A stretch of DNA of 64,000 nt from Candidatus Latescibacterota bacterium. Its GTDB lineage: Bacteria; Latescibacterota; UBA2968; GCA-2709665. The DNA is taken from positions 4,192,001 through 4,256,000 of the forward strand of contig OZ244937.1 in the NCBI GenBank assembly GCA_965222075.1, read 5' to 3'. The position numbers and the translations under genes are program-made. The notes beneath the pieces are model-generated. The model did no database searches. It was given only the letters and a program-made list of their open reading frames with translations, and was not told the origin of the DNA. Of this stretch, positions 1,263 to 45,714 are shown in pieces. Position 1 is the first letter of the stretch. Every line of letters starts with the position of its first letter.

Positions 1263-1380
1263 AGATAGGCACCGCGCACCGAAAGATGCAACGTCTTTCA
1301 GAAGAGGCCCTCATCTCCCAATCCCTTCTTGGGTTTGTTTACTCACGCTGCTTCACCCCTACCAGACGACGGGAGTCCCC

Positions 1381-4259: not shown

Positions 4260-7200
4260 CTACTCCCGCTTTAGTGCGGGAAGCAGTGGGATCCGCATTG
4301 CCAGGTAGGCCGCGGCGGCGCTGGACAGGATGCCGATGAGAAATACCAGCGCCAGGGTGAGCAAAAGCGATGTCCAGGGTACCGACACGCCGGGGGCCAT
4401 CAGGTGGGGGGCGACGGCAAGGAGTGCGGACAGCGCGCCGATGAGCAGGCCGATGAGCAGGAGAAAACCGTTTTCCGCAAGCAGCATGGTGGATAGGGTG
4501 GACCGGCGAAATCCGAAGGCCCGGAGGGTTGCGAGTTCGCCCCGGCGTTCCATCACGTTTCTCAAGAGGATGATTCCCAGGCCGATTGTGCCAAGAACCA
4601 ACCCCAGCCCGCCCAGCGTCTGGAAGGTGGACAGGTAGGTGTTTTCAACGGCCTGATAGCCGGCGAGTTTTTGGGTTGTTGAGGTTGCGTCGTAGCCGAA
4701 ATTTCGCAGCCTGCTTTCCAGAATTGCTGACAGTTGTTCGACATTTTCCGGAGGGGTCTGAACCAGGAAATAGCGATATCCGCTCTGGTTGGAAAAGTGC
4801 TTGAGAAAATTGGATTCGGAAATCAACAGTTCGCTTTGAAAGATGCTTGTTTGCAGGAGCCCGACCAGACGCAGTTTCACTTCCTCGCCCGCACTGTTGT
4901 AAAGGAGGATGTCCTCGCCCAGGCCGAGGTGTAAAATCCACACCACCGAGTTGAAATCCCCGATGGCCGGAAGGACGCCCGGTTCCAGATCTTGTTCAAG
5001 CAACTCCCACGGATTGCCTATCTCCTCTGTTGTCTGCTGAAACCGAAACCCGCCCCGGCGGATGAGTTCGTTGGGGACTCCCAGGACTCGGGGCGTTTGG
5101 GGCCGGTAGAGGTTCAGGCAACTGACATCCTCTCCCGGTAAGGCCCGAAAGGGCAAAATTTGAGCCCGGTTTAAGGTTTCGGCGTCTGCTTCGGAAAACC
5201 CCAGTTCGAACCGTCCCGTTTCGGTATTTAAATCGTGATGCAGGGGGATGTCGGCCTGCGCCACCAGTGCGAATCCCCCCGTACCGGCATCTTTTTCCAA
5301 GAGGGTGCGGCCGGACGGCTCAGCGCGGCGGTTGGCCCCCACGGCGACGATGACGAAGCAGGCGCAGCCGATGAGCGCCGCACAGAGGAGGCTCCGGCCG
5401 GGATGCCGGGCGCTGTTTCTGATGCCGATACGGGCGATACGGGCGACCCCGAATGGGGCGTCCTTTTCTTTTTTTTCACGGCGGAACCACAAAGCGGCAA
5501 AACTCAGTCCGGCAATGAGGAGGAGCGCGCCACTGCCGAAAAATAAGCCCACGGAGGCTGTTGTATCCGCAGCCAGTCCGGCCGCCATCAAAGCCACGGC
5601 CAGCCCCAGGCTGGCAAAAGCGTAGATCTGCGGTTTGCGCCCGGACGCGGAGCGGTCCAGAGTGGTTGCGCCCTCCAGCAACGCACGCACGGGTACCCTG
5701 CCGAGCTGGCGTACGGTCCGCCAGATGGAGAACAGGACGACGGCTGTTGAGATCAGGTATCCCAGGGCCAGGCTGGAGGGGGTCATGTAAAGGGATAAGA
5801 ACGGGGTGCCGACCGCCGACACCCACCAGGTCCGAAGGCCCACGATCATCAGCCACGCATAAAAGGCAGCGCCTGCCAGGCCCAGCAGGCCGCCGGAACC
5901 GGCAAGGATGGCGGCCTCAGACATAAACCGCCTGCGGATTGCCGCAAGCGGGTGACCCGAGGCCAGCAGAATGCCCACCTCTTTCGCCCGCTGCTCCACG
6001 CCAAGGCGGAAGAGCAGGCCGACCAGAAGGGCGGCGGAGACGATGAGGAACTGGCTGAATCCGATAAAGAGCACGCTGAAGTCGGTTGCGCCCGAAGCGG
6101 CGCTTAGGCCCCGAGCTTTGACCGGCTGAAATTCCAGGCCCACCTGTTCGGGACGGATTTTTCTGAGCAGATCTGCTTGAAAATTCGCCAGGGTGGTAGA
6201 TACGTCCAATCCGGGCGAGGCGCCGATCCGGACCGCGCTGATCGTGCCAAATCGACTGCGCCACAACCGCTGGCCTGTTTCCTCCGACACAAAGGCTTTC
6301 GGAGCGGCGCCAAACGTATCCCAGTACGCTTCATCCCGGGAACGTATGCGATTGAGGTCCACAGGGAAAGGCGCTTTCCAGGCCGACATGTTGTCCGCGT
6401 CCTGAATTCCAGGGAATTCCGGGGTCAACTTCGGATCCGCTGCCATGCCCTCTAAGGCCACGGTTCCCTTTAAACGAAATGACGCGCGTCTGGTAAATAA
6501 TTGCTCTCTGGGGCCGACCAGAAAGTACGTGAGTTCAATCCTGTCTTCGACCCGCACGCTTAGATCGTTCGCCGCCCACGCGTTGAGGAGAATTTCATCC
6601 TCACCCAGTTGAGGCACGGGCGAACCATCGGTCAGTTTGAATGTACCGAAGGGCGCAGAGGCGGTGTTTTTTTCCGCCGCTCCGTAGTTCAGCGCTGTGA
6701 CCGTGGAATAGGGGATTTCGCGATCGCCTGCGCTTATGGTGTTGGCCAGGTAGGTCAGAACGGGCAGGAATGGCGTGCGGTGCGTCGATGCGAGCGTTTT
6801 GATGGTTTTTACGATATCGGGCTTGAGGATAAACTGTGTGCTTTCTATGGAGAAATAATCGGGCTGCTCATAGAAGACCAGGCCGATGTCATCCAGGTGT
6901 AGAACGCGGGAAAGGGCCGCCTGCAGATCCTGTGGACGCGTATTTTCATCCCGGCGGGACACCAGGATGGCGTTTACCCGGCCGCGCTGTCCAAGCGTTT
7001 TTTGCAGAACGGGGAGAGAGACGAAGGCATTTAGCGGAAGGCTCTGGTGAGACCACAGGCCGAACCGGCCCATGCCCCGGTCTGGAATGACGTGCGTGAG
7101 GGTGAGGCGGAGGGTCTGAACGGTCTGCGAGGCGCCTTCACGGCCGAACAAGAATTCACGGTGGATGTCGCTTGGCCTTTCAAATGAGAGCAGGATCGGG

Positions 7201-7661
7201 TCGCCCACGTGGGCGTTCAGTTCCTTCTGGAGGGATTGGTTGATGATGACCGGCGGGAAGACCTGATTCTGTTTGCCGGGCAAAAAAAGGCCCGGTTGCT
7301 CTGTACCGGGACCGGGTTTAAAAAGCGCGGCAAACCGATGGTCGATGCCCTGAATCTGGACGCGAGAGGCCCGGGAGCGGGTGCTTGCGTTTACCGCGGA
7401 TCCACCCAGAAAAATGGCGGGCACCGCATGCTTTCCAAAGGCGGATTCGCCGGAGAGGTCGGTCGCCAGTTCGGAGCGGAAAAAGCGCGTTGAGACGAGG
7501 ATGTCGTCGATGCGGCCCAACCGCTCCAGGGAGAGGTTCCGCAGGCTGCCCCGGACCGAATCGCCTACCAGCAATGCGCCGGAGAGCACCGAGGTTGCCA
7601 CGGCTGCACCCAGGACCACCGCGAGGTGGATCTGCCAGAAGTGGGTTAGACTTCGACGCAT
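4260..7661 (-). CDS. Large fused ABC transporter permease, MacB/FtsX/LolC-E type, two permease halves (1133 aa)
   Basis: Two FtsX-like TM blocks with the signatures EQRAKEVGILLASG and ERRGELATLRAFGF, large periplasmic loops, adjacent LolD-like ATPase. Confidence 0.88.
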   Translation of the reverse strand: MRRSLTHFWQIHLAVVLGAAVATSVLSGALLVGDSVRGSLRNLSLERLGRIDDILVSTRFFRSELATDLSGESAFGKHAVPAIFLGGSAVNASTRSRASRVQIQGIDHRFAALFKPGPGTEQPGLFLPGKQNQVFPPVIINQSLQKELNAHVGDPILLSFERPSDIHREFLFGREGASQTVQTLRLTLTHVIPDRGMGRFGLWSHQSLPLNAFVSLPVLQKTLGQRGRVNAILVSRRDENTRPQDLQAALSRVLHLDDIGLVFYEQPDYFSIESTQFILKPDIVKTIKTLASTHRTPFLPVLTYLANTISAGDREIPYSTVTALNYGAAEKNTASAPFGTFKLTDGSPVPQLGEDEILLNAWAANDLSVRVEDRIELTYFLVGPREQLFTRRASFRLKGTVALEGMAADPKLTPEFPGIQDADNMSAWKAPFPVDLNRIRSRDEAYWDTFGAAPKAFVSEETGQRLWRSRFGTISAVRIGASPGLDVSTTLANFQADLLRKIRPEQVGLEFQPVKARGLSAASGATDFSVLFIGFSQFLIVSAALLVGLLFRLGVEQRAKEVGILLASGHPLAAIRRRFMSEAAILAGSGGLLGLAGAAFYAWLMIVGLRTWWVSAVGTPFLSLYMTPSSLALGYLISTAVVLFSIWRTVRQLGRVPVRALLEGATTLDRSASGRKPQIYAFASLGLAVALMAAGLAADTTASVGLFFGSGALLLIAGLSFAALWFRREKKEKDAPFGVARIARIGIRNSARHPGRSLLCAALIGCACFVIVAVGANRRAEPSGRTLLEKDAGTGGFALVAQADIPLHHDLNTETGRFELGFSEADAETLNRAQILPFRALPGEDVSCLNLYRPQTPRVLGVPNELIRRGGFRFQQTTEEIGNPWELLEQDLEPGVLPAIGDFNSVVWILHLGLGEDILLYNSAGEEVKLRLVGLLQTSIFQSELLISESNFLKHFSNQSGYRYFLVQTPPENVEQLSAILESRLRNFGYDATSTTQKLAGYQAVENTYLSTFQTLGGLGLVLGTIGLGIILLRNVMERRGELATLRAFGFRRSTLSTMLLAENGFLLLIGLLIGALSALLAVAPHLMAPGVSVPWTSLLLTLALVFLIGILSSAAAAYLAMRIPLLPALKRE

Positions 7662-8317
7662 GTGCCCTCCTGCAGCTCAAAGCGCCGCTCAAAGCGTCCG
7701 GCGAGGTCCAGGTTGTGTGTGACCACGATCAGGATGTTCTGTTCGGCCTGGTGCAGATCGAAGAGGAGGGCGGCGACCTCGTCGGCCCTGGAACGGTCGA
7801 GACTGCCGGTGGGCTCATCACAGAGCAGCAGGCCGGGGTGGTTGATCAGCGCCCGCGCCACCGCCACACGCTGCCGCTCGCCGCCCGAGAGTTCGGCCGG
7901 GCGATGGTCGATGCGATGCGAAAGCCCAACGCGCTCGATCAATTCCAGCGCCCGCGCTTTCGCATCGCCATCGGGCTGTTTAAACGCCAGCGTGGGCACC
8001 AGCACATTTTCCAGAACAGAATACTGAGGCAGCAGGTGGTGATCCTGAAAGACAAATCCGATCACCCGATTTCGAAACCGGGCGAGTTCGGGTTCGGGCA
8101 GCACAAACGGATCTTCGCCGTTGATCTCAAGATGCCCCGACGAAGGGCGGTCCAGCGTCCCGATTACGTGCAGAAGCGTACTCTTCCCCGACCCGGAAGG
8201 CCCCATCATAACCAGCGACTGTCCACCCGCCATTTCAAACGAAATACCGCGAAGAACCTCCACAGGCCGATCACCGCTCCCAAAGCGTTTTGAAATGTCG
8301 GATACCTTCAGTGACAT
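7646..8317 (-). CDS. ABC transporter ATP-binding protein (LolD/MacB type)
   Basis: Walker A GPSGSGKS, signature LSGGERQRVAVARAL, Walker B LLCDEPTG, H-loop VTH. Confidence 0.95.
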   Translation of the reverse strand: MSLKVSDISKRFGSGDRPVEVLRGISFEMAGGQSLVMMGPSGSGKSTLLHVIGTLDRPSSGHLEINGEDPFVLPEPELARFRNRVIGFVFQDHHLLPQYSVLENVLVPTLAFKQPDGDAKARALELIERVGLSHRIDHRPAELSGGERQRVAVARALINHPGLLLCDEPTGSLDRSRADEVAALLFDLHQAEQNILIVVTHNLDLAGRFERRFELQEGTCVEV

Positions 8318-8754
8318 GACGCCCTATCCCCTTCGCCTTCGGGTGCTTCTTCAATCCGCTCCGCAACAGAATCCGGGATCGGAATCGACCTCAATTTCTC
8401 CTCCGGATTGCAGATACAGCACACAGCCTTCAATTCTCCCCGGGCAACCACCTCGCCATCTCTGGTAAAAACGAAGCCATAGGTGATGGACATAGCGCCC
8501 TTTCGCATCACCCTTAACCGGATGTCCAGCTCCTCTTCAAACCGGACTGGATTCAGATATTCGCAGAACGCCGTCAGTCTGGGCCACCCGATCTTGTTGC
8601 CCTCCCATTGGGTAGAAACGCTCGTCCCCAGCGAACGTAAAAACGCGTGCTCGGCAGCCTCCATAAAAACAAAAAACCGGGCAAAGTGTACAATGCCGGC
8701 CATGTCCGTATCGGAAAATTCGACCCTGCGCTTTGTATAATACTCGTAAGGCAT
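8308..8754 (-). CDS. Hotdog-fold acyl-CoA thioesterase (4HBT/YbgC family)
   Basis: RVEFSDTDMAGIVHFARFFVFMEAAE signature; 148 aa. Confidence 0.9.
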   Translation of the reverse strand: MPYEYYTKRRVEFSDTDMAGIVHFARFFVFMEAAEHAFLRSLGTSVSTQWEGNKIGWPRLTAFCEYLNPVRFEEELDIRLRVMRKGAMSITYGFVFTRDGEVVARGELKAVCCICNPEEKLRSIPIPDSVAERIEEAPEGEGDRASCH

Positions 8755-8782
8755 ACACCGTTTCCTTCATCCAGACGCTCGT

Positions 8783-9283
8783 CTACGATCCGGGCCTGAA
8801 CAGCGTAACGAGACATCCTCCTACAGCCGCCAGTAGAATACCCGCTACAAACTGCCAGTTCAAACTGCTCAGTCCCCCGGCAGGAGGATGCAGCGCCATT
8901 GCTACAACCGCATTCACAACCGGCGCTCCGGCAAACACAATTGACATCACCACCGACGGTGTCCCCTTTGCCCCAAACGCCAACAAGACGCCGAATGCGC
9001 CCAGCGCCCCTGCAACGCCTGCAAGGGTGGACCACGTCATGCCCTTCGCCGTAAAGGACCACGAGGCGCCCTGAACGGCCAGCACGATAAGAGAGCCGAT
9101 CACCGCCGTTAACAGGTAGGCCAGTCCAACAAAAAGGAACGCTTTGTACCGTCCGTTTACCGCATCCCCCATCGCCATCTGTCCCGTATGCAGCAAAACG
9201 CCGTACAGACCCCAGGAACAAACGGTCATCATCGCAAAAACAAGCCAGGTCAAACCCGGTGATGAAACATCTTCGGTCAGCAT
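8783..9283 (-). CDS. Small integral membrane protein, DMT/EamA half-domain-like (~5 TM)
   Basis: Hydrophobic Gly/Ala-rich helices (SWGLYG, LAGVAGALGAFGVLLAF, APVVNAVV). The ATG at 9283 has an AGGAGG RBS and is preferred over 9349. Confidence 0.7.
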   Translation of the reverse strand: MLTEDVSSPGLTWLVFAMMTVCSWGLYGVLLHTGQMAMGDAVNGRYKAFLFVGLAYLLTAVIGSLIVLAVQGASWSFTAKGMTWSTLAGVAGALGAFGVLLAFGAKGTPSVVMSIVFAGAPVVNAVVAMALHPPAGGLSSLNWQFVAGILLAAVGGCLVTLFRPGS

Positions 9284-9345
9284 CGAAAACCCTCCTGAGA
9301 AAAATTTCAGACCTTTGAGCCATCCGCCGTAGGGACGGATGGTTT

Positions 9346-10632
9346 TCACACATACATCCTGTAAACTCCCAGCGTTGCCTCGGCCATCACCTCGTCTCCA
9401 AATGCCCGGTGCACCACCTCCTTACCTTTCCGCCCCAGGGCTTCCCTGTAGTCTGCATCTTTCATCAGTTGAAGCATGCCTTCTGCAATCGCACCCGGAT
9501 CATCCGGCTCCACCAGGATGCCGCCACCGGTCTCCTTGATAAGCTCGGGAAACGCCCCATGTCGCGGTTGTACCACAGGCACGCCATTGGCAAGCGCTTC
9601 TAAGACAAACAGCCCCTTGGGCTCTTTGTAGGGCGTTGGCACGGACAAAACATGCAGACCATTGAGAAAATCGATCTTTTGTGTGCGGTCGACTTCCCCC
9701 CGGTGATCAAACGCATCGGTTAGTCCCCAGGCATCGACCTGGTCCACGATCTTCTCAAAATAGGCCCGATCTCTCCTGCCCAGGTAACCTGCGACCTTGA
9801 GCCGAACGTGCTCTGCGCCGACCTCCTCCGTTAACCGGCGAAACGCTTCAACCAGCAGATGGAGGCCCTTTTCGGGACAAATGCGGGCCAGGTATCCCAC
9901 TGTAAAAGGTGCGTGATCCAAAGGTCTCCGGCTCTCTCCATGACCTTTCAGATTCAGCCCCAGCTTGACCACATGGATTTTATCGCCGGGAACATTCAGA
10001 TAATCCGCCATAAAATCGGCGTAGTATTGGCAGGGCGCGATAAACCCATCCATATCCACGGCCCGATCCCGCAGGAGCGCAAGCGTCCTCGATCTGTACG
10101 GCTCGACCAATCCCTCCAGAAAGATATCCTCTCCCTGAAAGGCACACAGCACAGGAACCCCCAGCTCCTTTTTGAGTTTCCAGGCCATTCCCGAAAACAT
10201 GGAATTGGTCAGCTGTACGATATCCGGACGGTAAACCTTCTTCAACCATTGAACCAGCTTCGCCAGCTCCTTCTTCTGCGCCCCCGCTTCCCCCTCCAGC
10301 ACGGAAACCGTAAGGGCGCCCAGGTCTTCGGCGCGAGCCGCACCGCTGAAGCGGGACAACCCCTTCAAAAGCGCCGGCCGATCCAGCACCCGATCCAGGG
10401 TCCAGGGTGTATGCCGGAACAGCGCGATCTTCTGCTGGAGATATACATTTATCCCACCATAAAAAATCTGACCGATGCTCACATCCGGTTCATCGGTGCG
10501 AAGGGGCGTATAGGTAGGCACAAGCGCAACTTCCGCCCCTTTTCTTTGCAGGGCCGCCGCCAGTGTATTATCGTGGATACAACTGCCGCAGTACATCCCC
10601 GCAGCGCCCGCAGCAATATAGGCGATTCTCAT
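9346..10632 (-). CDS. Glycosyltransferase family 4 (GT-B) with an N-terminal CxxC
   Basis: GYLARICPEKGLHLL, EPKGLFVLEALANGVPVV and GAFPE motifs; N-terminus MRIAYIAAGAAGMYCGSCIHDN. Confidence 0.9.
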   Translation of the reverse strand: MRIAYIAAGAAGMYCGSCIHDNTLAAALQRKGAEVALVPTYTPLRTDEPDVSIGQIFYGGINVYLQQKIALFRHTPWTLDRVLDRPALLKGLSRFSGAARAEDLGALTVSVLEGEAGAQKKELAKLVQWLKKVYRPDIVQLTNSMFSGMAWKLKKELGVPVLCAFQGEDIFLEGLVEPYRSRTLALLRDRAVDMDGFIAPCQYYADFMADYLNVPGDKIHVVKLGLNLKGHGESRRPLDHAPFTVGYLARICPEKGLHLLVEAFRRLTEEVGAEHVRLKVAGYLGRRDRAYFEKIVDQVDAWGLTDAFDHRGEVDRTQKIDFLNGLHVLSVPTPYKEPKGLFVLEALANGVPVVQPRHGAFPELIKETGGGILVEPDDPGAIAEGMLQLMKDADYREALGRKGKEVVHRAFGDEVMAEATLGVYRMYV

Positions 10633-10664
10633 ATTAATCGAGGGGAAACGTGTTTTTCACGGTC

Positions 10665-11936
10665 TCACTCCAGACGCCACAGAGCCAAGGTTGAAATATC
10701 TTTGACGAAAATCTGTCTTCCCAGCACAGCCGGATGGGCCCACGTCGGGCTGTCGGCCACCGAATATCGAGCAACAGACTCAAATCCCCTGGCACTTTTC
10801 TTAACCACAACCAACTCGGCCTCGGTCGTCAGACAGAACATCACCTCTCCGGCGCCAACAAGCGCAGCGTTTTTACCCTGCCGTCCCTCGCTCGTCCAGA
10901 GCATCGATCCGGTTCGAGCGTCCAGACAGAAAAATCGCCCCTTGCGTTTGTGGTCCAGCCCAAATAAAAGGTCATCGCACAGGACCGGCGAACTCATATA
11001 CATCGAAACCTCTGCGTTATGCCAGACCTGTTCGGTTGACCATGTATCGCCATCCCTGGTAACTTTAATCGCCGTTGTCCCCCTGTCCAGACCTGAGAAA
11101 ATCACCGTCTCCTCGAACACGACCGGCGTCACGATATTCTGGTCCCACGCGGTTGTAAACGGAATGCTCCAGAGCAACCGGCCTGTGTCTAAAGCAACCC
11201 CCACACAGTAATTTTGCGTCTGGGTCACCACCTGTTTTGTGCCTCCAAACACAGCCACAATCGGCGAGGTGTATGCCGGGCCGTCCCCGTCCCAGCGCCA
11301 TTTCACATCTCCGGTCTCCGCGTTAAAAGCCATCAGTGCGCCCTGGTCGTGCCCCCCAACGTGCGCGATCAGCATACGATCTGCCACCAGGGGCGACATC
11401 GCTGTGCCGTAAAGGGGTGAGGTCTTCTCAAATCGACTCGAAAACGCGTGACGCCACTTCAGCTTGCCCGTACTGGCCTCAAAACAGGATAAAATGCCGC
11501 TGATCCCCAGGGTATAGAGCTTCCCGTTGTGGAACACAGGTGTCGACTTCGGCCCCTTGCCGTGTCCTCTTGCAGCCGAATTCATACGATAAGGCGCCCG
11601 ATAGCGTTCCTGCCAGATCAACCGACCCGAATCCAGAGAGAAACAGGAGGCCGCCTCCTGCCCTTCCAGACGGGAGTGCAGATAGACCTTTTCACCCACA
11701 ACAACCGGCGATGCGTGTCCCGTTCCAACCGGTACCTTCCATCCAAGCTTCAACGAATCCGGCCAGACCCCCGGCATCGAAACCGATTTCGCCACCCCAT
11801 CCCGATTCGGGCCCCGCCATTGGGGCCACATACCCTCAGCAGAAACGCGTCCCAACCCCACCGCACCCACGCCCCACATCCAGGCGACCGTCCACGCGAT
11901 CACACGCAACCGCTTCACGTCACACTTTAGCAGCAT
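10665..11936 (-). CDS. Secreted PQQ-like beta-propeller protein (4 of 4 in the operon)
   Basis: Signal peptide then WPQWRGPNRDG; repeated ASPVV/STPV...G.L.W blades. Start is uncertain (11936 or 11918). Confidence 0.85.
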   Translation of the reverse strand: MLLKCDVKRLRVIAWTVAWMWGVGAVGLGRVSAEGMWPQWRGPNRDGVAKSVSMPGVWPDSLKLGWKVPVGTGHASPVVVGEKVYLHSRLEGQEAASCFSLDSGRLIWQERYRAPYRMNSAARGHGKGPKSTPVFHNGKLYTLGISGILSCFEASTGKLKWRHAFSSRFEKTSPLYGTAMSPLVADRMLIAHVGGHDQGALMAFNAETGDVKWRWDGDGPAYTSPIVAVFGGTKQVVTQTQNYCVGVALDTGRLLWSIPFTTAWDQNIVTPVVFEETVIFSGLDRGTTAIKVTRDGDTWSTEQVWHNAEVSMYMSSPVLCDDLLFGLDHKRKGRFFCLDARTGSMLWTSEGRQGKNAALVGAGEVMFCLTTEAELVVVKKSARGFESVARYSVADSPTWAHPAVLGRQIFVKDISTLALWRLE

Positions 11937-14476: not shown

Positions 14477-14501
14477 AAGTTCTCAAACGCACCGTTCGTC
14501 T

Positions 14502-16983: not shown

Positions 16984-16986
16984 TGC

Positions 16987-18129
16987 TCAGTAAACCGCTT
17001 CATAAAGCTGTAAAAAATCACCCTCGGTCACCCGACGCGGGTTAAACGTCCCCGTCCACTGCCCGGCGGCTTCTTTCGCCAGCAGAGGCAAATCGCCTCT
17101 CTCAATCCGGAAATCTCTCAGACATTCGGGCAACCCCGCCGTGGCCTTCAACCTGACAATGCGGTCAACAAGAAGAGCCACACACCTCTGTCGGTCTGCC
17201 TGGGCCCGATGCGCAGCCAGACCCTCATAAAGCCCTGCTTCCACCTGGCCGTTGAACCGGATCACCACAGGCAGCATAAGTCCCACCGCAATCCCGTGCG
17301 TCATTCCATATCGGGCTGTCAGGGGATTTGCGCACGCATGGGCAGCGCCCAGCATAGAATTCTCGATGGCTGCGCCGGCCAGATGAGCTCCCAGAAGCAT
17401 CTTCCCCCTGGCCTCAACGGACGCCGGTTCGGACAAACTTATCTCAAAACTCCCTTCGAGCAACTCCCATGCACGCAGGGCGAACATCTGCGAAACAGGA
17501 TTCCTCCGCGTTGAAACATAGCTCTCCAGAGCGTGGGAGACGGCGTCCATACCGGCAGCGGCAGCAACGGATTTCGGCACGCTCTCTGTCAGAACGGGAT
17601 CGAGAATCACCGCCCAAAATCGCGCCTTCACATCCCCGCACGCCATCTTCTGGTGGGACGCTTCCCGGGCGATTAGCGCATACGACTGCGCCTCACTGCC
17701 CGTCCCCGCAGTTGTCGGAATCCCGATCGATGGAAGCATGGGCTGGACTGCCTTGCCCATACCCCAATAATCCTCCATCTTCCCGCCATTGGTCAGAATA
17801 AGATTGACCCCTTTGGCGCAGTCCATCGCACTGCCCCCCCCCAGCCCCACAATCAGATCGACTTCCCCCTGCGCCTTCGCAAAATGCACCCCCGCTTCAA
17901 CATGCCGTGTGGTCGGATTCTCTTCCGTACCCTCAAAAACGCAAACCTCCAGGGATGCCTGCCTCAACGACCGAACCGCCCGCTCCACAATACCCACCTT
18001 CACGATCCCCGGATCGGTAACAATCAAAACACGCCCACCACCCAGTTCTTCCACCAGATCTCCCAGTCGGTCTAAGGTACCTTCACCAAAAATCACCCGT
18101 GTGGTAGGCTGGAAATCGAAAGGTTGCAT
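16987..18129 (-). CDS. Iron-containing alcohol dehydrogenase
   Basis: GLGGGSAMD, IPTTAGTGSE, metal ligands in GMDAVSH, AAHAC and MTHG. Confidence 0.92.
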   Translation of the reverse strand: MQPFDFQPTTRVIFGEGTLDRLGDLVEELGGGRVLIVTDPGIVKVGIVERAVRSLRQASLEVCVFEGTEENPTTRHVEAGVHFAKAQGEVDLIVGLGGGSAMDCAKGVNLILTNGGKMEDYWGMGKAVQPMLPSIGIPTTAGTGSEAQSYALIAREASHQKMACGDVKARFWAVILDPVLTESVPKSVAAAAGMDAVSHALESYVSTRRNPVSQMFALRAWELLEGSFEISLSEPASVEARGKMLLGAHLAGAAIENSMLGAAHACANPLTARYGMTHGIAVGLMLPVVIRFNGQVEAGLYEGLAAHRAQADRQRCVALLVDRIVRLKATAGLPECLRDFRIERGDLPLLAKEAAGQWTGTFNPRRVTEGDFLQLYEAVY

Positions 18130-18166
18130 AGAAGTTCAATTCAGGAGATTTTGACCCTGATGCGCC

Positions 18167-19594
18167 CTACGCCCGCTTCGCCCACTGCAGCGCCCGCTGT
18201 CGGTAGAGATGCTCGAACAAATTCCCTTCGTGAGGCTGATCCCAGGAAACATGGGTGGTGGGAATGGGCCCCACATTCAGGCGTTCCACATCCGGAGAGC
18301 CCAACAGCGCGTCGATCAATGCGCCGTCCTCCGTAAGCGCGGTCACTGCGAGACTTGGGCCGATCCGGTCCAGGATCTCCTCCTGGGGCGCTTCGACCAC
18401 ACTGACAAACGGGAACAGGAATTCCGTATTGGCCAGGGGGTGTTCGGGGTCTTCGCACCAGATCACCGTCGGATTCAAAAAGGTACATCCCGCCTTCTCA
18501 ACCACCCGATCCGTCCCCCTGAGCCCAACCGTCAGGTCCACGGCGCCGGGAACCTTAAGCTGGCTGTCGATCAAACCGGAAAGCCGTCGGGCAAATTCGG
18601 GCCGGGTAAACGCGGCAATCTGCGCCTCCGGATCATCCAGCGGCCGGGCGGTAATCTGGACCAGGCACTCCGCCAGCGCCTCTGCGATCTCACGGCCATG
18701 TCCGGGCACCCATACACCGGACGCATTGATACAGGACCTGCCGCCGTTTTCGGCGATAGAGGCCACCATCACATCCAGGCCATCTTCCCATGCCGAAACC
18801 CGATCGGCCCCAATAATTACCTTGCTCCGCCCCGGCCCGTGAATCTGCACACGGGGATCGGCCTCCCAGGGCGCCACTGTCGGTCCGCCGCCAAACAGCA
18901 GCGACCGCCCGCAGCGGAGTAAAAGTTCACCTGCCCCTGCATGGTCCGTCGGATAAACCCCGAATGCCTCCGGCGGGCAGCCCGCCGCAATAAACGCCTG
19001 CGCAATGCGAAACGGCGTCCAGGGCTCCTCGCTGCCGGGCTTGAGAACAAGCGGTACTTTTAAAGGAATCGCAGGAATCCAGAGAGAATGCACCCCGGGC
19101 GAGTTGCTGGGCAGCACGGCGCCCAGGGCTTCGGTCTGGCAGACGTAGCTCAAAGGCCGTTCATTTTGAACCTTCCACCCTTCGTCCAGCACAGAAAGAT
19201 CGAGCCCGCGCGTCAGCCCGTCCAGAACAGCCTCCATCTCTTCGGAAACCAGGCGGATCTTATCCATATTCTGCCGGCAGAGAGATTCAGGCATACCCGT
19301 CGTCCCCGACACCTGCCGACCGTAATCTTCGGGCGACTGCGCATCCCCGTCCAGCGGCAAATCCGCCTCCATAAAAAGCCGGGCGGCCCGTTTACAAATC
19401 CCCAGCAGTTCCGAAACACCGTAAGCCTCAAGCGCCCGCTTATTGGACGCCGCCGACAGCAGATCCTTTGCCACCAGCCCGCGGTTGGCCTGACTGACAG
19501 CCCCCAGGGGTTCCCCGGTCTGAACGTGTGAAACATGGGCTACACTCAAACTCCTGTAAGCCCGCCCGGCCCGTAGAATTGGGAGGTGTACCAT
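18167..19594 (-). CDS. Aldehyde dehydrogenase-fold acyl reductase, EhpG/GriD-like
   Basis: VLPSNSPG, LVLKPG, catalytic Cys in NGGRSCINAS, EFLFP. The canonical ELGG is replaced by QIHGPGRSK. Directly follows the EhpF-like gene. Confidence 0.8.
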   Translation of the reverse strand: MVHLPILRAGRAYRSLSVAHVSHVQTGEPLGAVSQANRGLVAKDLLSAASNKRALEAYGVSELLGICKRAARLFMEADLPLDGDAQSPEDYGRQVSGTTGMPESLCRQNMDKIRLVSEEMEAVLDGLTRGLDLSVLDEGWKVQNERPLSYVCQTEALGAVLPSNSPGVHSLWIPAIPLKVPLVLKPGSEEPWTPFRIAQAFIAAGCPPEAFGVYPTDHAGAGELLLRCGRSLLFGGGPTVAPWEADPRVQIHGPGRSKVIIGADRVSAWEDGLDVMVASIAENGGRSCINASGVWVPGHGREIAEALAECLVQITARPLDDPEAQIAAFTRPEFARRLSGLIDSQLKVPGAVDLTVGLRGTDRVVEKAGCTFLNPTVIWCEDPEHPLANTEFLFPFVSVVEAPQEEILDRIGPSLAVTALTEDGALIDALLGSPDVERLNVGPIPTTHVSWDQPHEGNLFEHLYRQRALQWAKRA

Positions 19595-19613
19595 AGCTAA
19601 ACGTATTCCTGAT

Positions 19614-20702
19614 TTAATACACTCCCACCACAACGGATTCCTGAAGTTCGGAAAGAAGCCTCAGGTTGCGCACGCCGTCCCAGGGGTAGGGCTCGATCGG
19701 TTCTGCCCGTTCCGCTTCATCCCGTTCTAAAAATCGCGGCATAAAAAACTCTTTGGTCAGCGTCGTCAGCATCACCCGGCCCGTTTCGCCGTAATCCACA
19801 GGTTTGTCGGGATTGGCGGGATCTACAAGCTCGATAACCGCTCGAGGGCAGGGTGAATAGTAAATAATCGCGTAATCATCTGCAGGATCAAACGGCTTGG
19901 AGTGCGCCAGCCCCATCAGCGTGTTCCCGTACGTGGGTACAAAATCAACGCCTGGAACCAGCTCTTCCCGGGCAAAGCGGTGAAATTGGGCATTCATCTC
20001 TGTGCCGCCGCAAAAAATCCCGGCGATGCCCACCTTCTCCAGCGAGACTTTTTCACACAGGGCTTCCAGCAGCCTGGGGGTAGTGAAAATGCACCGGATA
20101 TTGTCATTGGCTCTTAAAATCGTCAGCGCCTGATCAATCACGTGGGCCTTGTACGTATCCATCTCCTGAAGCTTGCCATGCCCGATCAGCTTATTCACCC
20201 ACCGCGGGTCCAGATCCACCAGAAAGCAGATCCCCCCCCGGATCTGGGCCAGGTACTCAATCGCAAGGCGCAGCCGCCGCGGCCCGGTCGGCCCCAGCAT
20301 CAGCCAGTCGCTCCCCCTGGGAAACCCCTCCTCCGACAGGTGCTCGCTGAACATCTCGTAGTCGGTCTGAAAATCGTGAATATTAATCCGATACTTGGGC
20401 ACCCCGGTGGAGCCGCCCGTTTCAAACACATAAACCGGTTTATCGGCAAGCGCCCGGGGCACCCAGCGCCTCACGGGCCCGCCGCGCAGCCACTCGTCCT
20501 GAAAATGGCCCAGCGCCTTGAGGTCGCCGTACCCGCCGATCTCTTTGCACGGGTCAAAATCGAGGCCCCCGGCAAATTCCAGCCAGAACGGACAGCCGGT
20601 CTCCGGACTGAAATGCCACTGCACGATGTCACGAACGTGGGCATCCAGCTCCTGGCGTGCTTTTTCAACCTTCTGGGATAAGGTTCGATCTAAGATCTCC
20701 AT
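19614..20702 (-). CDS. Atypical ANL adenylating enzyme, EhpF/GriC-like
   Basis: Shares ordered motifs with EhpF as I recall its sequence: WHFSPETGCPFWL, ETGGSTGVPK, PTGP, DLDPRWV, GGTE, YGNT, VDYGETGRV, PRFLERD, C-terminal GVY; similar length (~360 aa). Confidence 0.82.
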   Translation of the reverse strand: MEILDRTLSQKVEKARQELDAHVRDIVQWHFSPETGCPFWLEFAGGLDFDPCKEIGGYGDLKALGHFQDEWLRGGPVRRWVPRALADKPVYVFETGGSTGVPKYRINIHDFQTDYEMFSEHLSEEGFPRGSDWLMLGPTGPRRLRLAIEYLAQIRGGICFLVDLDPRWVNKLIGHGKLQEMDTYKAHVIDQALTILRANDNIRCIFTTPRLLEALCEKVSLEKVGIAGIFCGGTEMNAQFHRFAREELVPGVDFVPTYGNTLMGLAHSKPFDPADDYAIIYYSPCPRAVIELVDPANPDKPVDYGETGRVMLTTLTKEFFMPRFLERDEAERAEPIEPYPWDGVRNLRLLSELQESVVVGVY

Positions 20703-20723
20703 TCAACCCCCAACCGTCAGTCA

Positions 20724-20770
20724 AATTGCGGATTGCAGAATAAAGGGTTTTCAATCCGCAATCCGCAATT
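20724..20770. repeat. Inverted repeat built from AATCCGC heptamers
   Basis: AATTGCGGATTGCAGAAT (20724-20741) pairs with AATCCGCAATCCGCAATT (20753-20770) at 16 of 18 positions; intergenic within the operon. Confidence 0.7.
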
Positions 20771-20774
20771 GTCT

Positions 20775-22238
20775 TTACCGGCCTCTGTCTTCAATCGCAA
20801 AAAGCGTATTGCGGCCCCCAATATAAAGCACCCCGTCTTTTGCCACAGGCGTGGTGTATACGGCGCTGCCCATGTTCACTTCATAAAGCAGCTCCAGCTT
20901 TTTGCCTACCTTCAAGACGGCAACATCCCCGTCCTCGTCTCCAATATAAACCTTTCCGTCGGCCACAAACGGCGATCCCCAGATTGCGGCAAACGTGTCG
21001 TACTTCCAGTGAGATTTGCCCGTCTTGACATCCAGGCAGTAGACAAACCCGCTCAGATCCGCCGCGTAGAGCAGGCCGTCGTGAATGGCCACGGTAGACA
21101 TCGTCCGGTTAAAATCCTGCCCCCCAAAATGCCACACCGTGCCGCTCCCGGTCACATCCCCTTTGCCCGTCGCGTCGATCGCCCACAGGTGGCCGACGCC
21201 TTCTCCGTGCTCGGGATCCTGTCCCACACCGATAAAGACCTTGTTGTCGTACACAACCGGCGTTGCAACAATGTTATTGCGCGTTCCCCTTCCGCCCAGT
21301 TCCCAGACCGACTCCTTGGGATTGCAGTCAAACTTCCAGATCAGCTCCCCCGTCTCAGGCTCTAACGCATAAATCCACCCATCTCCCCCTGGAAAAATCA
21401 CCTGCGGCTTGCCGTTAATCACCCCGTAGGCCGGATTGGACCACTGCCCGTGCAGGATATTTTCTCCGGGAAGGTCCTTTTCCCAAACGACCTCACCCGT
21501 CTTCGTGTTGACCGCAATAAAACTCGGCGCAAACGGGGAAGGAATGTGGAAATGCCCCTCGTCTACCCCGTTGCTGGTCACCACAAATAGGAGGTCGCCT
21601 GCGCCGACGGGGGAGCAGGTGGCCAAGTTGTGCGGGAAAACCTCCAGCTCCGCCATCATGTCCAGCTTCCAGATCATATCCGCACCGATGTCGCTCGTAT
21701 CGGCTTCCGCTTTGAACGGCCCGTCGTTCTCACCATCCCGGAATCCCTCGGTATCCACACACACCACCTCACAGCGATTGGAGATATAATACAGCCGATC
21801 CTCCTCCACATAAGGCGTTGAGCAGATCCCCTGCTGGGGCCAGTCGTTCACCCGTCCGGCAGCCAGCTTCGTATGCGTGGACTGCCAGAGAAACCGGCCG
21901 TCCGCCTGCCGAAACGCCATTACAACGCCGCGGTCGCCCGTGAGTTTGGGGTCCCGTAAGCCCTGGTTGTTCGTGCCCACAAAGATTTTACCGCCCACAA
22001 TCACGGGCCCCGCATACGTCTGGGACCCCAACACTTCTTTCCATTTAATATTCTCCCCTGTAGCGGGGTCCCACTTTGTCGGCAGGCCTTTCTCGTCAGA
22101 GACCAGATTGCGATCAGGCGTGAAGCCCCACATCGCAGCCTCCTGGGCAGCGGCCGCCGGCGCAATTGCCAAAACTGTTACCACTGTGACGTAAGCAAAC
22201 AGAAAAATATTCCCCATCGGGATGCGTTTAGATTTCAT
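20775..22238 (-). CDS. Secreted PQQ-like beta-propeller protein (2 of 4)
   Basis: Signal peptide ending AAAA-QE; blades such as GICSTP, NLATCSP, QWSNP, IVATP, IWGSP and VYTTP, each followed by G..W. Confidence 0.87.
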   Translation of the reverse strand: MKSKRIPMGNIFLFAYVTVVTVLAIAPAAAAQEAAMWGFTPDRNLVSDEKGLPTKWDPATGENIKWKEVLGSQTYAGPVIVGGKIFVGTNNQGLRDPKLTGDRGVVMAFRQADGRFLWQSTHTKLAAGRVNDWPQQGICSTPYVEEDRLYYISNRCEVVCVDTEGFRDGENDGPFKAEADTSDIGADMIWKLDMMAELEVFPHNLATCSPVGAGDLLFVVTSNGVDEGHFHIPSPFAPSFIAVNTKTGEVVWEKDLPGENILHGQWSNPAYGVINGKPQVIFPGGDGWIYALEPETGELIWKFDCNPKESVWELGGRGTRNNIVATPVVYDNKVFIGVGQDPEHGEGVGHLWAIDATGKGDVTGSGTVWHFGGQDFNRTMSTVAIHDGLLYAADLSGFVYCLDVKTGKSHWKYDTFAAIWGSPFVADGKVYIGDEDGDVAVLKVGKKLELLYEVNMGSAVYTTPVAKDGVLYIGGRNTLFAIEDRGR

Positions 22239-22275
22239 CTCTCACCTCGGTGAAATTGAAGATCGAATATTGAAT

Positions 22276-24489
22276 TCAATCTTCAATAACCTTGATATTA
22301 TCGTAGTATATCTCCGCCGGCGAATACCCATACAGCCCCGGGCTCCCTTCCCGGTTGGGCAGCGGGTCTTCCGCCGTAATCGTCCAGGCCCCGGGCTCGG
22401 GGTCGGAGGTCCGCCAGACCTTCCCCTTGACAATCGCTTTCTCGCCGACAACATCCACCTTCAACTTCATCGTATACCACACATCCGGGTCCCACTGAAA
22501 GTCGATCGTCTTGGCCATCCTCAGATCCGACGTCCAGGAACGGACCTGCAGCCGCTGGTGGTTGCCCATCATATCCAGCGTATAGCGGTTGGCGATCAAC
22601 CCCATATCGGAACGCCTCCGTCCCCTTTTGGCGCCCATCAGATCGGCCTGAATCGTGTAATTCGCCATACCGGGCGGGCCCAGATAAACATTGGAACGGT
22701 TTAACCCCCGTCTTACCGGCGCTTTGACCAGCACCTTGTTCCCGTCCTTCACCTTAACCAGAAACTTGGTCCCTGCCCCCACCCAGTGGGAGGGATTCTT
22801 GTCCACCTCAACCGATTCAAAGTCTTCAGACCACGGCAGAGGAGGCACAACCCGAACCCGTGCGGCCCCTTTTAAATCTCCCACCTGAGCAAAAAGGAAG
22901 CCTGCTTGCGCGCCCCGTTTTTTATCCGGCGTAAACCGTCCTTTCTCACCCATCTCTCCCAACAGCCCTTTGAGCGACCACGCGGCGTTCACCCTCCGTA
23001 TAAATCTTCCCTGAGCGTCAAAAGTCCGCACGCTGAACCGAACCGTCTCGCCCGGGCGAACCAGAACCTCCGCAGGGACGACCCGGATGGTGGCCGGTGG
23101 GGCGTTCCGATCGGGTCTCCTTCCAGCACCCGCCATCGCTTTGGAGGGTATAACGGTGAATTCGGCCTTTTTGTCGCCCAGGCAGTAAAGCCCCTCTTCT
23201 GTTGTAAAATAGATCCGCCCATAAGCAACCGCAGGCGACCCGTAGATCTCCGCAGGGCGTCCACCGGGCAACTTGATTTTTTCTTTATCGAGCGCTTTGC
23301 CGGCATCCTTCCCGGCTTGAACCACCTGAAACGCACCGTTCACTTCCGTTACGTACAACTTTCCATCCGCCCACACCGGAGACCCCTTGCCCACCGTACC
23401 GACATTGTAATGCCAGTAAACCGTGCCATTTTCGGCATCCAGACAGTGAAGGTTCGCCGAATTGTCGACAACATAAAGCCGCCCGGCGTGCACCACCGGC
23501 GAGGCATACCCCACCATACACTCGTCGTAGCGCCAGGCTTCGTGCGTTTTGGTCACATCGCCCGTCCCGGTTCCATCAATGCACACCACCCGTCCCATGG
23601 ACGTATTGTCCAGATTCTCTTCGCTGTGGGCCGCATACACCCGGTCCCCGTCCACCACCACCGAGGCATTGATGCCGCGCTTGCTAAGCTGGAATCCCCA
23701 CACCTTCTCTCCCGTTTGCACCTTAAGCGCATAGATCGCGCCATTCGCATTTCCGGCAATCAGGAGCCGCTGCCCGTTGATCACCGCCACAACCGGTGTG
23801 GAGTACGTGGTATCCTTTGGCGGCCCCCCCGGTGTCGAAATCCAGACCACCTCACCCGTCCGTTTATCAAACGCATAATAACGGTGTCTGCCCGGCACCT
23901 GGTCTCCCCAGCTGGAATTGAGAAAACTGATAATCACAAGGTCGCCGTCCACAAACGGCGTATGGACGCGCCCCCCATAACCCGAAATCCGACCCAATTC
24001 TTCGGTTAAAGAACGCGACCACAAGATATTGCCGTCTCTGTCAAAACAGAAAAACAGCCCCCCGATCCCGTGGGCATATACATTCCCGGTTTCAGGATCG
24101 CCGGCCGGACTCGCCCAGCCCACGCGGTTAAAAGGAATGGTCGTGTGAAAAACGTTGAACCGGTGCTCCCAGAGCAATTTTCCGGTCTCGGCGTCAAAAC
24201 AGGCGACCCGTTCCTGCTCGGTGATATCTTTGCCGATTCGCCCGATCGCATACACCCGGCCGTTGAGCACAACAGGTGTGGAACGGCCGATAAAATCCGC
24301 CTTCCAGATCAGGTTTTCGTCCTCTAAAGACCAGTTTGAGATCAAACCCCTTTCCGGGGAAACCCCGGTTTGCAGGGGGCCGCGCCAGTGCGGCCAGTCT
24401 GCGGCCAGAACGCTCTGACAGCCAGCGCTCCCCACCAGGTGCAGGCAGAGCGAGATACCGATCATCTTAAGTGTAATTTGAGTTCTCAT
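22276..24489 (-). CDS. Secreted PQQ-like beta-propeller protein with C-terminal Ig-like and lectin/ConA-like domains (1 of 4)
   Basis: Signal peptide, DWPHWRGP, propeller blades to about aa 440, an Ig-like segment (IRVVPAEVLVRPGETVRF) and a beta-sandwich tail (WYTMKLKV...VKGKVW...IYYDNIKV). Confidence 0.85.
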   Translation of the reverse strand: MRTQITLKMIGISLCLHLVGSAGCQSVLAADWPHWRGPLQTGVSPERGLISNWSLEDENLIWKADFIGRSTPVVLNGRVYAIGRIGKDITEQERVACFDAETGKLLWEHRFNVFHTTIPFNRVGWASPAGDPETGNVYAHGIGGLFFCFDRDGNILWSRSLTEELGRISGYGGRVHTPFVDGDLVIISFLNSSWGDQVPGRHRYYAFDKRTGEVVWISTPGGPPKDTTYSTPVVAVINGQRLLIAGNANGAIYALKVQTGEKVWGFQLSKRGINASVVVDGDRVYAAHSEENLDNTSMGRVVCIDGTGTGDVTKTHEAWRYDECMVGYASPVVHAGRLYVVDNSANLHCLDAENGTVYWHYNVGTVGKGSPVWADGKLYVTEVNGAFQVVQAGKDAGKALDKEKIKLPGGRPAEIYGSPAVAYGRIYFTTEEGLYCLGDKKAEFTVIPSKAMAGAGRRPDRNAPPATIRVVPAEVLVRPGETVRFSVRTFDAQGRFIRRVNAAWSLKGLLGEMGEKGRFTPDKKRGAQAGFLFAQVGDLKGAARVRVVPPLPWSEDFESVEVDKNPSHWVGAGTKFLVKVKDGNKVLVKAPVRRGLNRSNVYLGPPGMANYTIQADLMGAKRGRRRSDMGLIANRYTLDMMGNHQRLQVRSWTSDLRMAKTIDFQWDPDVWYTMKLKVDVVGEKAIVKGKVWRTSDPEPGAWTITAEDPLPNREGSPGLYGYSPAEIYYDNIKVIED

Positions 24490-24607: not shown

Positions 24608-24722
24608 GCAAAAGAACGCCCTTCCCCCGTGTTCGGTCGCCTCGATTGAGGCTCCTGCTTGGAAGAAGGGCATTAGCCTCGGCTCACGCCGACGTGTGGA
24701 CTTGCAGATCAGAAAAAAATTG

Positions 24723-28564: not shown

Positions 28565-28709
28565 TTGAATAACTCCCAGTATAAATCTGTCTTGACGGAT
28601 TTTTGAAATAAAAAAAACGGCAATTCCGCCAATAGAATGGCGACAGCCCTCTATCGGTTTGAGAAGAAATGCCGTTTGGAACGTGCTTAGAAGCTCGTCA
28701 GGGGTGATG

Positions 28710-29690: not shown

Positions 29691-29693
29691 TTC

Positions 29694-30641: not shown

Positions 30642-30761
30642 TTTTTGTCCTCTCCAGAAAAATATCTTATAAATTGTTGTTTTAAAATTATTTGATTGGA
30701 TATATCCAGCACAAAAGACGCTGCAACATACCACAAATAGGGACGCCATTTCTCGTTACCC

Positions 30762-45682: not shown

Positions 45683-45714
45683 AGGGATCAGGTTCCAGGT
45701 AGGAGCGAGGTGAT

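Follow-up and report, generated by a model that had tools for sequence, protein, structure and literature searches.

A 64,000-nucleotide stretch of a Candidatus Latescibacterota genome, here called the window (contig positions 4192001-4256000 of a 5.36-Mb single-contig genome, 97.6% complete), carries on its minus strand an operon of 15 genes, numbered g01 to g15 from the operon 5' end. Judged by their conservation and co-occurrence, these genes appear to form one functional system. The system is best described as a putative small-molecule synthesis, export and uptake locus with an unprecedented component of secreted beta-propellers. Our preferred, still tentative, reading is that its product is a released-and-recaptured, metallophore-like aromatic alcohol glycoside, which would be halogenated or methylated in this organism and bound or processed by the propellers. 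Related loci and genomes are coded L and G, respectively, followed by three digits. The features of the operon are as follows, with the evidence for each, or a remark on it, in brackets:

24607-24579, (-): sigma-70-like site TTGATT-17-TATTAT upstream of g01 (consensus scan)
22276..24489, (-): g01, secreted PQQ_2 (BamB-like) beta-propeller, 737 amino acids (aa) (Pfam, NCBIfam)
20775..22238, (-): g02, secreted PQQ_2 propeller, 487 aa (Pfam)
19614..20702, (-): g03, EhpF-like truncated ANL adenylating enzyme (phmmer to PDB 3hgu, E 1.5e-49)
18167..19633, (-): g04, EhpG-like reductase of the aldehyde dehydrogenase (ALDH) family (catalytic Cys in GGRSCINASG)
16987..18129, (-): g05, iron-containing alcohol dehydrogenase (Fe-ADH, 161 bits)
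15853..16983, (-): g06, secreted propeller of the ACSF4/PQQ_2 type, 376 aa (PF13570, 266.7 bits, cut-off 133)
14502..15896, (-): g07, HemN-like (class C) radical S-adenosylmethionine (SAM) enzyme (radical SAM and HemN_C domains)
13187..14476, (-): g08, PaaK-like aryl-acid coenzyme A ligase (PDB 4r1l, 207 bits)
11920..13233, (-): g09, flavin-dependent halogenase, CndH/PltA type (matches to solved halogenases)
10665..12035, (-): g10, secreted PQQ_2 propeller, 456 aa (true start probably near 11936-11948)
9346..10632, (-): g11, GT4 glycosyltransferase (Pfam, NCBIfam)
8783..9349, (-): g12, small five-helix membrane protein, single EamA/DMT-like (Atlas placement)
8308..8754, (-): g13, hotdog (4HBT/YbgC-like) thioesterase (Pfam, NCBIfam)
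7646..8317, (-): g14, LolD/MacB-like ATPase of an ATP-binding cassette (ABC) system (LolD 254 bits, cut-off 307.75)
4260..7661, (-): g15, duplicated FtsX permease, 1133 aa (two FtsX modules, 10 predicted helices)

Conservation and organisation of the operon

The co-occurrence of the two halves of the operon was measured in 153 genomes of the window's phylum, each at least 80% complete. A relative of g03 was found in 95 of these genomes, distributed over 21 of 46 genera in a nearly all-or-none manner per genus. Orthologs of the GT4 gene g11 (E <= 1e-100) were present in 93 of the 95 carriers and in none of the 58 non-carriers, and the two carriers without one are genomes of 88% and 84% completeness. 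Kin are not independent, and the effective sample is about 21 genera. The pairing does not depend on linkage: in the single-contig genomes G079, G076, G130, G118 and G129, g03 and the GT4 gene are 1-3 Mb apart, and in Poribacteria and some Latescibacterota the halves of the operon occupy separate loci. Because both halves are retained even where they are unlinked, they probably serve a single function.

Gene order was compared by tblastn of all 15 proteins on related loci, supplemented by a second scan centred on the GT4 gene. Synteny was present in 160 related loci and in 70 further Acidobacteriota loci. The order g01-g02-g03-g04-g05-g06-g07 was alike in most loci of Latescibacterota, Poribacteria and Gemmatimonadota, and the GT4-centred scan gave the order g08-g09-(g10)-g11-g12-g13-g14-g15. 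In the nearest named relative, a Latescibacterota metagenome-assembled genome (MAG; L082), genes g03 to g15 are arranged as in the window, at 91-95% identity, and polA lies past them.

A short form of the operon, g03-(propeller)-g04-g11-g14-g15-propeller, is found in Acidobacteriota. In the 45 Acidobacteriota loci that extend 9 kb or more past g03 on its downstream side, g04 was present in 40, g11 in 44, g14 in 32, g15 in 30 and a propeller in 34. Genes g05-g09 were found in none of these adequately covered loci, nor were the TonB receptor and symporter that accompany the operon in other relatives (see below). The gene content of the short form points to an invariant core that consists of the EhpF/EhpG-like reductase pair, a GT4 with an N-terminal CxxC motif, the ABC machine and a secreted propeller.

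The g03 scan, with one genome per species, gave at least 599 stretches, of which 592 were confirmed, and g03 occurs in 590 or more species-level genomes, which carry the labels of at least six phyla. The best 80 of the at least 592 confirmed relatives share 68-82% identity with g03, under the labels Poribacteria, Latescibacterota, Gemmatimonadota, Calditrichia, Acidobacteriota (Blastocatellia, Vicinamibacterales and Bryobacterales) and Polyangiaceae. No cultured carrier was found among the 240 listed rows of three scans, where all titles are marked MAG except that of an Acidobacteria single-cell-style record (L115). The initial annotation of the window had named a failure of the genes to co-occur in other genomes as grounds for abandoning the idea of a single system; instead, relatives were found under at least six phylum labels with strong synteny and near-perfect pairing of g03 and GT4. 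The same annotation had called the operon an orphan, which is incorrect in that the EhpF-like gene belongs to a very large family of at least 8000 protein clusters at 90% identity in a large protein collection, with no informative names.

Several relatives differ in gene content from the window. In some Blastocatellia loci (L174, L194, L204 and L229) two EhpF-like genes, about 69% and 60% identical to g03, flank the GT4 gene. Four Poribacteria loci have a gene for a thiamine-diphosphate enzyme between g03 and g04 (for example L002:11441-13192 and L007:12688-14439), and L002 has a creatininase-family gene between g04 and g05; these insertions may be lineage-specific extra tailoring or precursor steps. 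A Vgb-lyase-like propeller of about 233 aa is found between g03 and g04 in 16 Poribacteria loci, among them L011, L012 and L028. In L002 (5999-8026; Poribacteria), the genes for an AAA_21 (AbiEii-type) ATPase and a DUF4276 protein between g01 and g02 look like a defence-type pair inserted in the operon. Nine loci contain a DUF4143/AAA_14 ATPase gene within the cluster (L139:11384-12574, L155:11330-12574 and seven more), and one subgroup has a LysR regulator and an adenylosuccinate-synthetase-like gene between GT4 and g12.

In the window, the 15 minus-strand open reading frames (ORFs) extend from 24489 down to 4260, with nine overlapping junctions and a maximum intergenic gap of 72 nt at g02/g03. 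The family order given in the initial annotation was confirmed by Pfam and NCBIfam. The polyketide synthase, non-ribosomal peptide synthetase (NRPS), carrier-protein and phenazine core genes that it had reported as lacking were likewise not matched among the 15 proteins, and phzA-G core genes were found neither there nor in the remaining window. The intergenic gaps are also too small to fit a precursor-peptide ORF, which that annotation had likewise listed as lacking. The operon is flanked by polA (1231-4134, +) and, divergent from the cluster promoter region, by a gene for a di-haem DHOR-family putative peroxidase (24839-26089, +), which is not kept beside the cluster in the relatives examined.

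A consensus scan of the 600 nt upstream of g01 found three promoter-like sites, compared with 0.3 expected, while the interior of the operon had nine, compared with 7.2 +/- 2.3 expected, which is no enrichment. As for the earlier proposal of one sigma-70 promoter, a consensus match to such a site lies upstream of g01, and the genes may be transcribed as a single unit. Sixteen contigs of a sponge metatranscriptome match the stretch. The eight that are listed, 158-223 nt long with 0-1 mismatch, fall on g15, g14, g11, g07, g04 and g03; DNA carry-over is possible, and the contigs are weak evidence of transcription and uninformative on operon structure. Thirteen sequencing runs with five coded host labels contain 0.91-0.99 of the sampled words of the stretch, and three runs labelled sponge metagenome (X14-X16) contain about one-fifth.

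Enzymes, glycosyltransferase and transport proteins

The enzyme family assignments made in the initial annotation were upheld, and catalytic motifs are conserved in homologs taken from the related loci, in which they were counted. g03 is a weak AMP-binding match in Pfam and NCBIfam and is assigned to EhpF by phmmer. Its residues 19-362 of 362 align with residues 23-369 of 369 in EhpF, the P-loop GGSTGVPK is retained, and the C-terminal ANL subdomain is absent, the protein ending where EhpF ends. The structure paper on EhpF reportedly proposed conversion of an aromatic carboxylate to an aldehyde via an acyl-adenylate. The phenazine cluster of an E. coli plasmid (NZ_CP076707.1) contains an ALDH gene to which g04 is 27.3% identical over 87% of its length (E 9e-31); this ALDH gene follows an EhpF-type gene ('phenazine antibiotic biosynthesis protein'). 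The ALDH cysteine is present in 58 of 63 g04 homologs, namely those with printed variants. In the tables of one paper (PMC11278526), this pair of an EhpF-type and an ALDH gene bears the names ehpF/ehpG in Proteus.

Long relatives of g03 include single-member gene calls in which it is joined to an ALDH (7 of 15), in one case also to an Fe-ADH; these calls, possibly assembly or gene-call artefacts, agree with a coupling of g03, g04 and g05. An 833-aa 'fusion' of g03 in one genus was rejected, being merely a stop-to-stop frame across g02 in another frame. g05 scores beneath all NCBIfam equivalog cut-offs. The motifs CxxxCxxC and GGGTPS of g07 are present in 43 of 43 homologs, and g07 scores below the cut-offs of the HemN, HemW and ChuW equivalogs (190 vs 325, 175.6 vs 205.4 and 175.7 vs 400 bits). 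It is an extra paralog, with a separate HemW-like gene at 44567-45745 beside lepA/lepB.

The structure-database matches of g09 are 8zop (229 bits), CndH (207) and PltA (175), with geranylgeranyl reductase at 63 bits. Alignments to 8zop, 3e1t and 5dbj retain GxGxxG, WxWxIP and a lysine aligned to that of CndH/PltA, which we take to be the catalytic lysine. The first two motifs are present in 43 of 43 homologs and the aligned lysine in 36 of 43, namely those with printed variants. On the CmlS equivalog g09 scores 204 bits (cut-off 900). No carrier (PP-binding) family was found in the cluster, and no search aimed at a flavin reductase was made. An archaeal-type lipid pathway, made up of glycerol-1-phosphate dehydrogenase and geranylgeranyl reductase, was also considered and rejected: g05 reached 24.7 bits on the dehydrogenase model, and g09 matches halogenases at 229 bits vs 63 bits for the reductase.

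The N-terminal motif MYCG[ST]C..DN of the glycosyltransferase g11 was found in 99 of 99 homologs. Ordinary GT4 enzymes carry a glycine-rich loop at this place, and the CxxC motif near the extreme N-terminus marks the subfamily of g11. The frame of g12 is multi-helix and is placed by the Atlas near DMT/EamA clusters (score 0.97). Its AlphaFold2 (AF2) model has five helices at low confidence (pLDDT 59.7), too weak for a structure search. A longer ORF, 8574-9353, which overlaps the thioesterase gene by 181 nt, was rejected as gene 12; Pfam gave no match for either frame. Poribacteria (L084, L085, L087 and others, at about 11270-12800) have three tandem g12 paralogs 3' of GT4, 45-56% and 77-80% identical to g12, which suggests a hetero-oligomeric transporter.

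The best matches of g14 are the LolD, MacB and YbbA ATPases, all below equivalog cut-offs (MacB 189 vs 966 bits). The first periplasmic domain of g15 is about 500 aa long, and an AF2 model of residues 28-527 has a pLDDT of 83.5. In Foldseek, its best matches are the periplasmic domains of LolE, LolC, MacB and YbbP (E 1e-8 and weaker), in alignments that cover about 230 of 500 columns. By predicted fold, then, the ectodomain is LolE/MacB-like, in support of the earlier claim of a LolCDE/MacB-type transporter, and g14/g15 are predicted to be a type VII ABC machine whose ectodomain is enlarged. Such machines work on the periplasmic side, with no passage of solute across the inner membrane, so that another protein would be needed for the inner-membrane step; the DMT-like g12 is a candidate. 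A search of the 15 proteins with Pfam and NCBIfam found no MacA-like adaptor, TolC or LolA in the cluster. A complex prediction for the g15 ectodomain (28-527) with g10 scored 0.00 (mark 0.32) and speaks neither for nor against binding.

Candidate recapture components, secreted propellers and competing explanations

Clustering was applied to a subset of the ORFs that remained in related loci once the 15 proteins had been accounted for. The recurrent extra families were PQQ_2 propellers (96 ORFs in 54 loci), a TonB-dependent receptor (51 loci) and a sodium:solute symporter of the SSF family (44 loci). Of the 31 loci that cover the g07-g08 junction, 25 have the receptor gene there, and an ortholog was found in 81 of the 95 g03 carriers of the phylum and in none of the 58 non-carriers. 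The relatives' receptor passes the cut-off of the siderophore-receptor model TIGR01783 (252.5 vs 223.5 bits), the next best model being Fiu, a catecholate receptor. It scored 35.8 bits on the PqqU model (cut-off 1200), and heme uptake was rejected as a main idea on a score of 77.5 vs 316.85 bits on the heme-receptor model. In 36 of 94 loci the gene immediately upstream of GT4 is that of the SSF symporter. For the symporter, the window's genome has no ortholog, its best match scoring 57 bits. The nearest relative outside L082 (L083/G034) retains the receptor between g07 and g08; the window's lineage has therefore lost it, leaving a junction of 25 nt. Comparison of the loci thus indicates that receptor and symporter were both lost in the window's lineage, while synthesis, export and four propellers were kept.

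The recapture implied by the relatives' receptor points to a small molecule that is released and recaptured, in the simplest case a metallophore-like shuttle made without NRPS or NRPS-independent siderophore (NIS) enzymes. The key steps would be as follows. An aromatic carboxylic acid from central metabolism would be activated by the PaaK-like ligase g08, halogenated by the CndH/PltA-type g09 and C-modified by the HemN-like g07, with release by the hotdog thioesterase g13. The EhpF-like g03 and EhpG-like g04 would reduce the carboxylate to an aldehyde, which the Fe-ADH g05 would convert to the alcohol, and the CxxC-type GT4 g11 would glycosylate the alcohol. The DMT-like g12 would take the product across the inner membrane, the LolE/MacB-like g14/g15 would move it onward from the periplasmic side, and the secreted PQQ_2 propellers would bind or process it. 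In most relatives, the siderophore-type TonB-dependent receptor, often together with the SSF symporter, would reimport the molecule or its metal complex. The enzyme families and synteny that underlie the aromatic product pathway of the initial annotation are observed, as are gene content, motifs, co-occurrence and the membership of receptor and symporter; substrate, step order, product and the role of the propellers are what we infer from them.

Several results weigh against this account. Its chief weakness is that the receptor, and with it recapture, is outside the invariant core, while the propellers, which a metallophore model leaves unexplained, are inside it. The receptor is absent from the window's genome (best match 23 bits, to the plug only), from 14 of 95 carriers and from 45 of 45 covered Acidobacteriota short forms. 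Membership of TIGR01783 is no proof of an iron ligand. No NRPS, NIS or opine-type synthase was found among the 15 proteins; the halogenase family of g09 usually uses carrier-bound substrates, and no carrier is encoded here; pumps of the MacB type normally depend on an adaptor together with a channel in the outer membrane, neither of which the cluster encodes. A Fur box was also lacking, with 0 matches at up to 3 mismatches to an E. coli-type consensus that may not be that of this phylum; a Fur-like match, 13/19 at 24715, is at least equalled by six others in the window. No riboswitch or other Rfam family was found in 4000-25200 at E up to 1.

The propellers themselves all have signal-peptide-like N-termini, as read by eye. 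In relatives, the cluster propellers begin with an SPase-I-type signal, after which comes a conserved WPQW(R/L)GP start, and a loose lipobox pattern occurs in 3 of 96. g01 has an extension of about 300 aa without a Pfam match, and its orthologs are 48-69% identical beside g02-g03 in relatives. g02 is the best conserved of the four, at 61-77% identity across phyla, which seems unusually high for a secreted protein, and g10 is of the propeller type that accompanies the short Acidobacteriota form. On quinoprotein dehydrogenase models the propellers gave single-repeat matches to PF01011 only, with 39-86 bits on TIGR03075 (cut-off 480), and on the BamB equivalog 58-148 bits (cut-off 285). One accessory propeller of relatives is fused to a PF00756 esterase domain, which reaches 56.8 bits, against a cut-off of 222, on the model for enterochelin esterase. 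Among the 120 listed longer relatives of g02 (42-63% identity), a BlaR1-type M56 domain was found in 42 and a protein kinase domain in 15, and one has a plug and TonB barrel behind a propeller 58% identical over 469 residues, a single fusion that may be a gene-call artefact. As a lead, but not as proof, these fusions suggest that the g02-type propeller is a ligand-binding extracytoplasmic module.

This raises the question of whether the product is a dedicated ligand, that is a prosthetic group or signal, of the secreted PQQ_2 propellers, with the receptor as an optional salvage route. Pyrroloquinoline quinone (PQQ) itself is made in the cytoplasm and exported to quinoproteins, and PqqU of E. 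coli is a TonB salvage receptor for it. The propellers are the sole periplasmic component in every variant, long or short (34 of 45 covered short forms), receptor-less lineages retain synthesis, export and propellers, and the invariant propellers and optional receptor are better explained in this way than by a shuttle. The identity of g02 across phyla and the use of g02-type propellers as the extracytoplasmic domain of M56 transducers and Ser/Thr kinases point the same way. However, the propellers are BamB-like PQQ_2 proteins that fail quinoprotein models and offer no direct support, the sensor domains occur in many proteins outside the system, so that their ligand may be a general one, and the SSF symporter favours import to the cytoplasm. 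We therefore consider a dedicated propeller ligand fairly unlikely. The same grade is given to the broader proposal that the cluster product is a so-far-undescribed ligand for widespread PQQ_2-type propellers, a second PQQ-like system, which would extend over Latescibacterota, Poribacteria, Gemmatimonadota, Calditrichota, KSB1, Acidobacteriota and some Myxococcota. An amphiphilic envelope glycoconjugate, a product that the initial annotation had also put forward, seems quite unlikely. The GT4 would act at the membrane, g12 would flip a lipid-linked sugar as ArnE/ArnF do, and the Lol-like machine would hand the product to the propellers. LolD is indeed the best ATPase match, and LolE and LolC match the ectodomain best by fold; g12, a half-transporter with a single EamA unit, is triplicated in Poribacteria; GT4 enzymes often use lipid acceptors; and the short form of Acidobacteriota is limited to the reductase pair, GT4, ABC and propellers. 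Yet the cluster has no lipid-building gene, the PaaK-like ligase, CndH-type halogenase, 4HBT protein and EhpF are aromatic-acid enzymes by family, and the patchy distribution over 21 of 46 genera is unlike that of core envelope machinery. The siderophore-type receptor and SSF symporter of relatives would also be pointless for outward lipid traffic and favour instead a molecule that is released and recaptured.

The same two importers, which lie inside the relatives' clusters, could alternatively bring in an exogenous aromatic compound for modification, detoxification or recycling and re-export, in place of de novo synthesis. PaaK-type ligases begin aromatic catabolism, and SSF permeases carry phenylacetate in Pseudomonas, but the window's genome lacks both importers and keeps all the enzymes, and the short forms lack both as well. 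By family, flavin halogenases, class C radical SAM enzymes and GT4 belong to anabolism, and no ring-cleavage or beta-oxidation genes were found in the window. Import of an exogenous substrate is thus improbable. It is also conceivable that the 15 genes are chance neighbours or several unrelated transcription units, since RNA support consists of eight listed short contigs from one sponge metatranscriptome and the halves are at separate loci in Poribacteria and some Latescibacterota. Against this, gene order and content are kept across at least six phylum labels, co-occurrence is near-perfect even with the halves unlinked, and the gene boundaries are tight or overlapping. Synteny and co-occurrence have already largely refuted such an arrangement by chance, which we regard as very improbable.

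Three further regions of the window were noted. A low-GC island at 57839-60219 (GC 0.41 in 58001-60000) has genes for a BsoBI-type restriction endonuclease and a DNA methylase and is probably a horizontally acquired restriction-modification system. Just beyond the cluster, a second low-GC region (26981-30749, minus strand; 0.46-0.47) encodes a 613-aa galactokinase-like GHMP kinase, a weak hexapeptide-repeat protein and an inositol-monophosphatase-like protein, and may be an acquired sugar-activation cassette. The gene at 35012-39658 (minus strand) encodes a protein of 1548 aa with NHL, FG-GAP, ASPIC/UnbV and Ig-like domains, a typical large secreted repeat protein of these symbionts.

Relation to known systems

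The system represents a common function, strongly conserved among bacteria of sponges, sediment and soil, to which no product is assigned, and the genera of its largely uncultured phylum have it on an all-or-none basis. There is a realistic chance that it is something more novel than a locus for synthesis, export and uptake. If the product is truly a metallophore-like shuttle, the operon would be an NRPS- and NIS-free route to one, which rule-based miners would probably miss. If it is a propeller ligand, this would be the first function for the huge PQQ_2/BamB-like families of Planctomycetota, Acidobacteriota and related phyla. The long form that sponge symbionts carry, with its halogenase, is, moreover, relevant to the unsolved origin of sponge bromo-aromatics.

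The EhpF/EhpG pair of the D-alanylgriseoluteic acid (phenazine) pathway of Pantoea agglomerans (PDB 3hgu) resembles g03/g04 in order and in the truncation of the first enzyme. Unlike the ehp clusters, the operon has no phenazine core genes, g04 is only about 27% identical to EhpG-type proteins, and the family described here is about 70-80% conserved across phyla and tied to a GT4, an ABC machine and propellers.

With metallophore loci, the relatives share a siderophore-type receptor within the cluster, a DMT-like protein, a glycosyltransferase and an ABC system; one relative's propeller-esterase fusion is also weakly like enterochelin esterase, below the cut-off. The pseudopaline locus cntOLMI has the DMT exporter CntI, and the salmochelin locus iroBCDEN has a glycosyltransferase, an ABC exporter, esterases and a receptor. 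In contrast to such loci, there is no NRPS, NIS or opine synthase here and no E. coli-type Fur box, and the receptor is absent from the window's genome. To our knowledge, secreted propellers are part of no described metallophore system.

The LolD/MacB/YbbA-like ATPase, the FtsX modules and the ectodomain fold are shared with the type VII systems LolCDE, MacAB-TolC and YbbAP. The operon differs from LolCDE and MacAB in its scores under the equivalog cut-offs, in about 270 residues of the g15 ectodomain beyond the matched core and in its lack of MacA, TolC and LolA. PQQ systems likewise combine cytoplasmic synthesis, involving a radical SAM enzyme, with clients that here would be periplasmic propellers of the eight-bladed type, but the operon has no pqq genes and no precursor peptide, and its propellers fail quinoprotein models.

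Literature searches for features specific to the cluster gave no characterised pathway with this combination, in agreement with the initial annotation, and one preprint, in the part available to us, lists similar clusters as orphan. That preprint describes a Halo_AMP pseudoclass in sponge microbiomes, defined by a flavin halogenase with an AMP-binding enzyme (Loureiro et al., bioRxiv 10.64898/2026.08.03.742642). As far as the accessible text goes, the best hits of the class are BagE, YtkN, BrtI and Bmp2, and it comprises 20 components, of which every member is an orphan and none is linked to a product (10.64898/2026.08.03.742642). Its clusters from Latescibacterota and Poribacteria are described there as having frequent PQQ-like domains, TonB receptors, glycosyltransferases, thioesterases and radical SAM enzymes (10.64898/2026.08.03.742642). 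By the definition given in that text, Halo_AMP is a search rule and not a defined system, and the core identified here exists without halogenase or PaaK-like ligase in Acidobacteriota. The operon of the window falls within the definition, with g09 accompanied by g08 and g03, and to judge from the same portion of the preprint it is likely that this architecture overlaps with Halo_AMP components.

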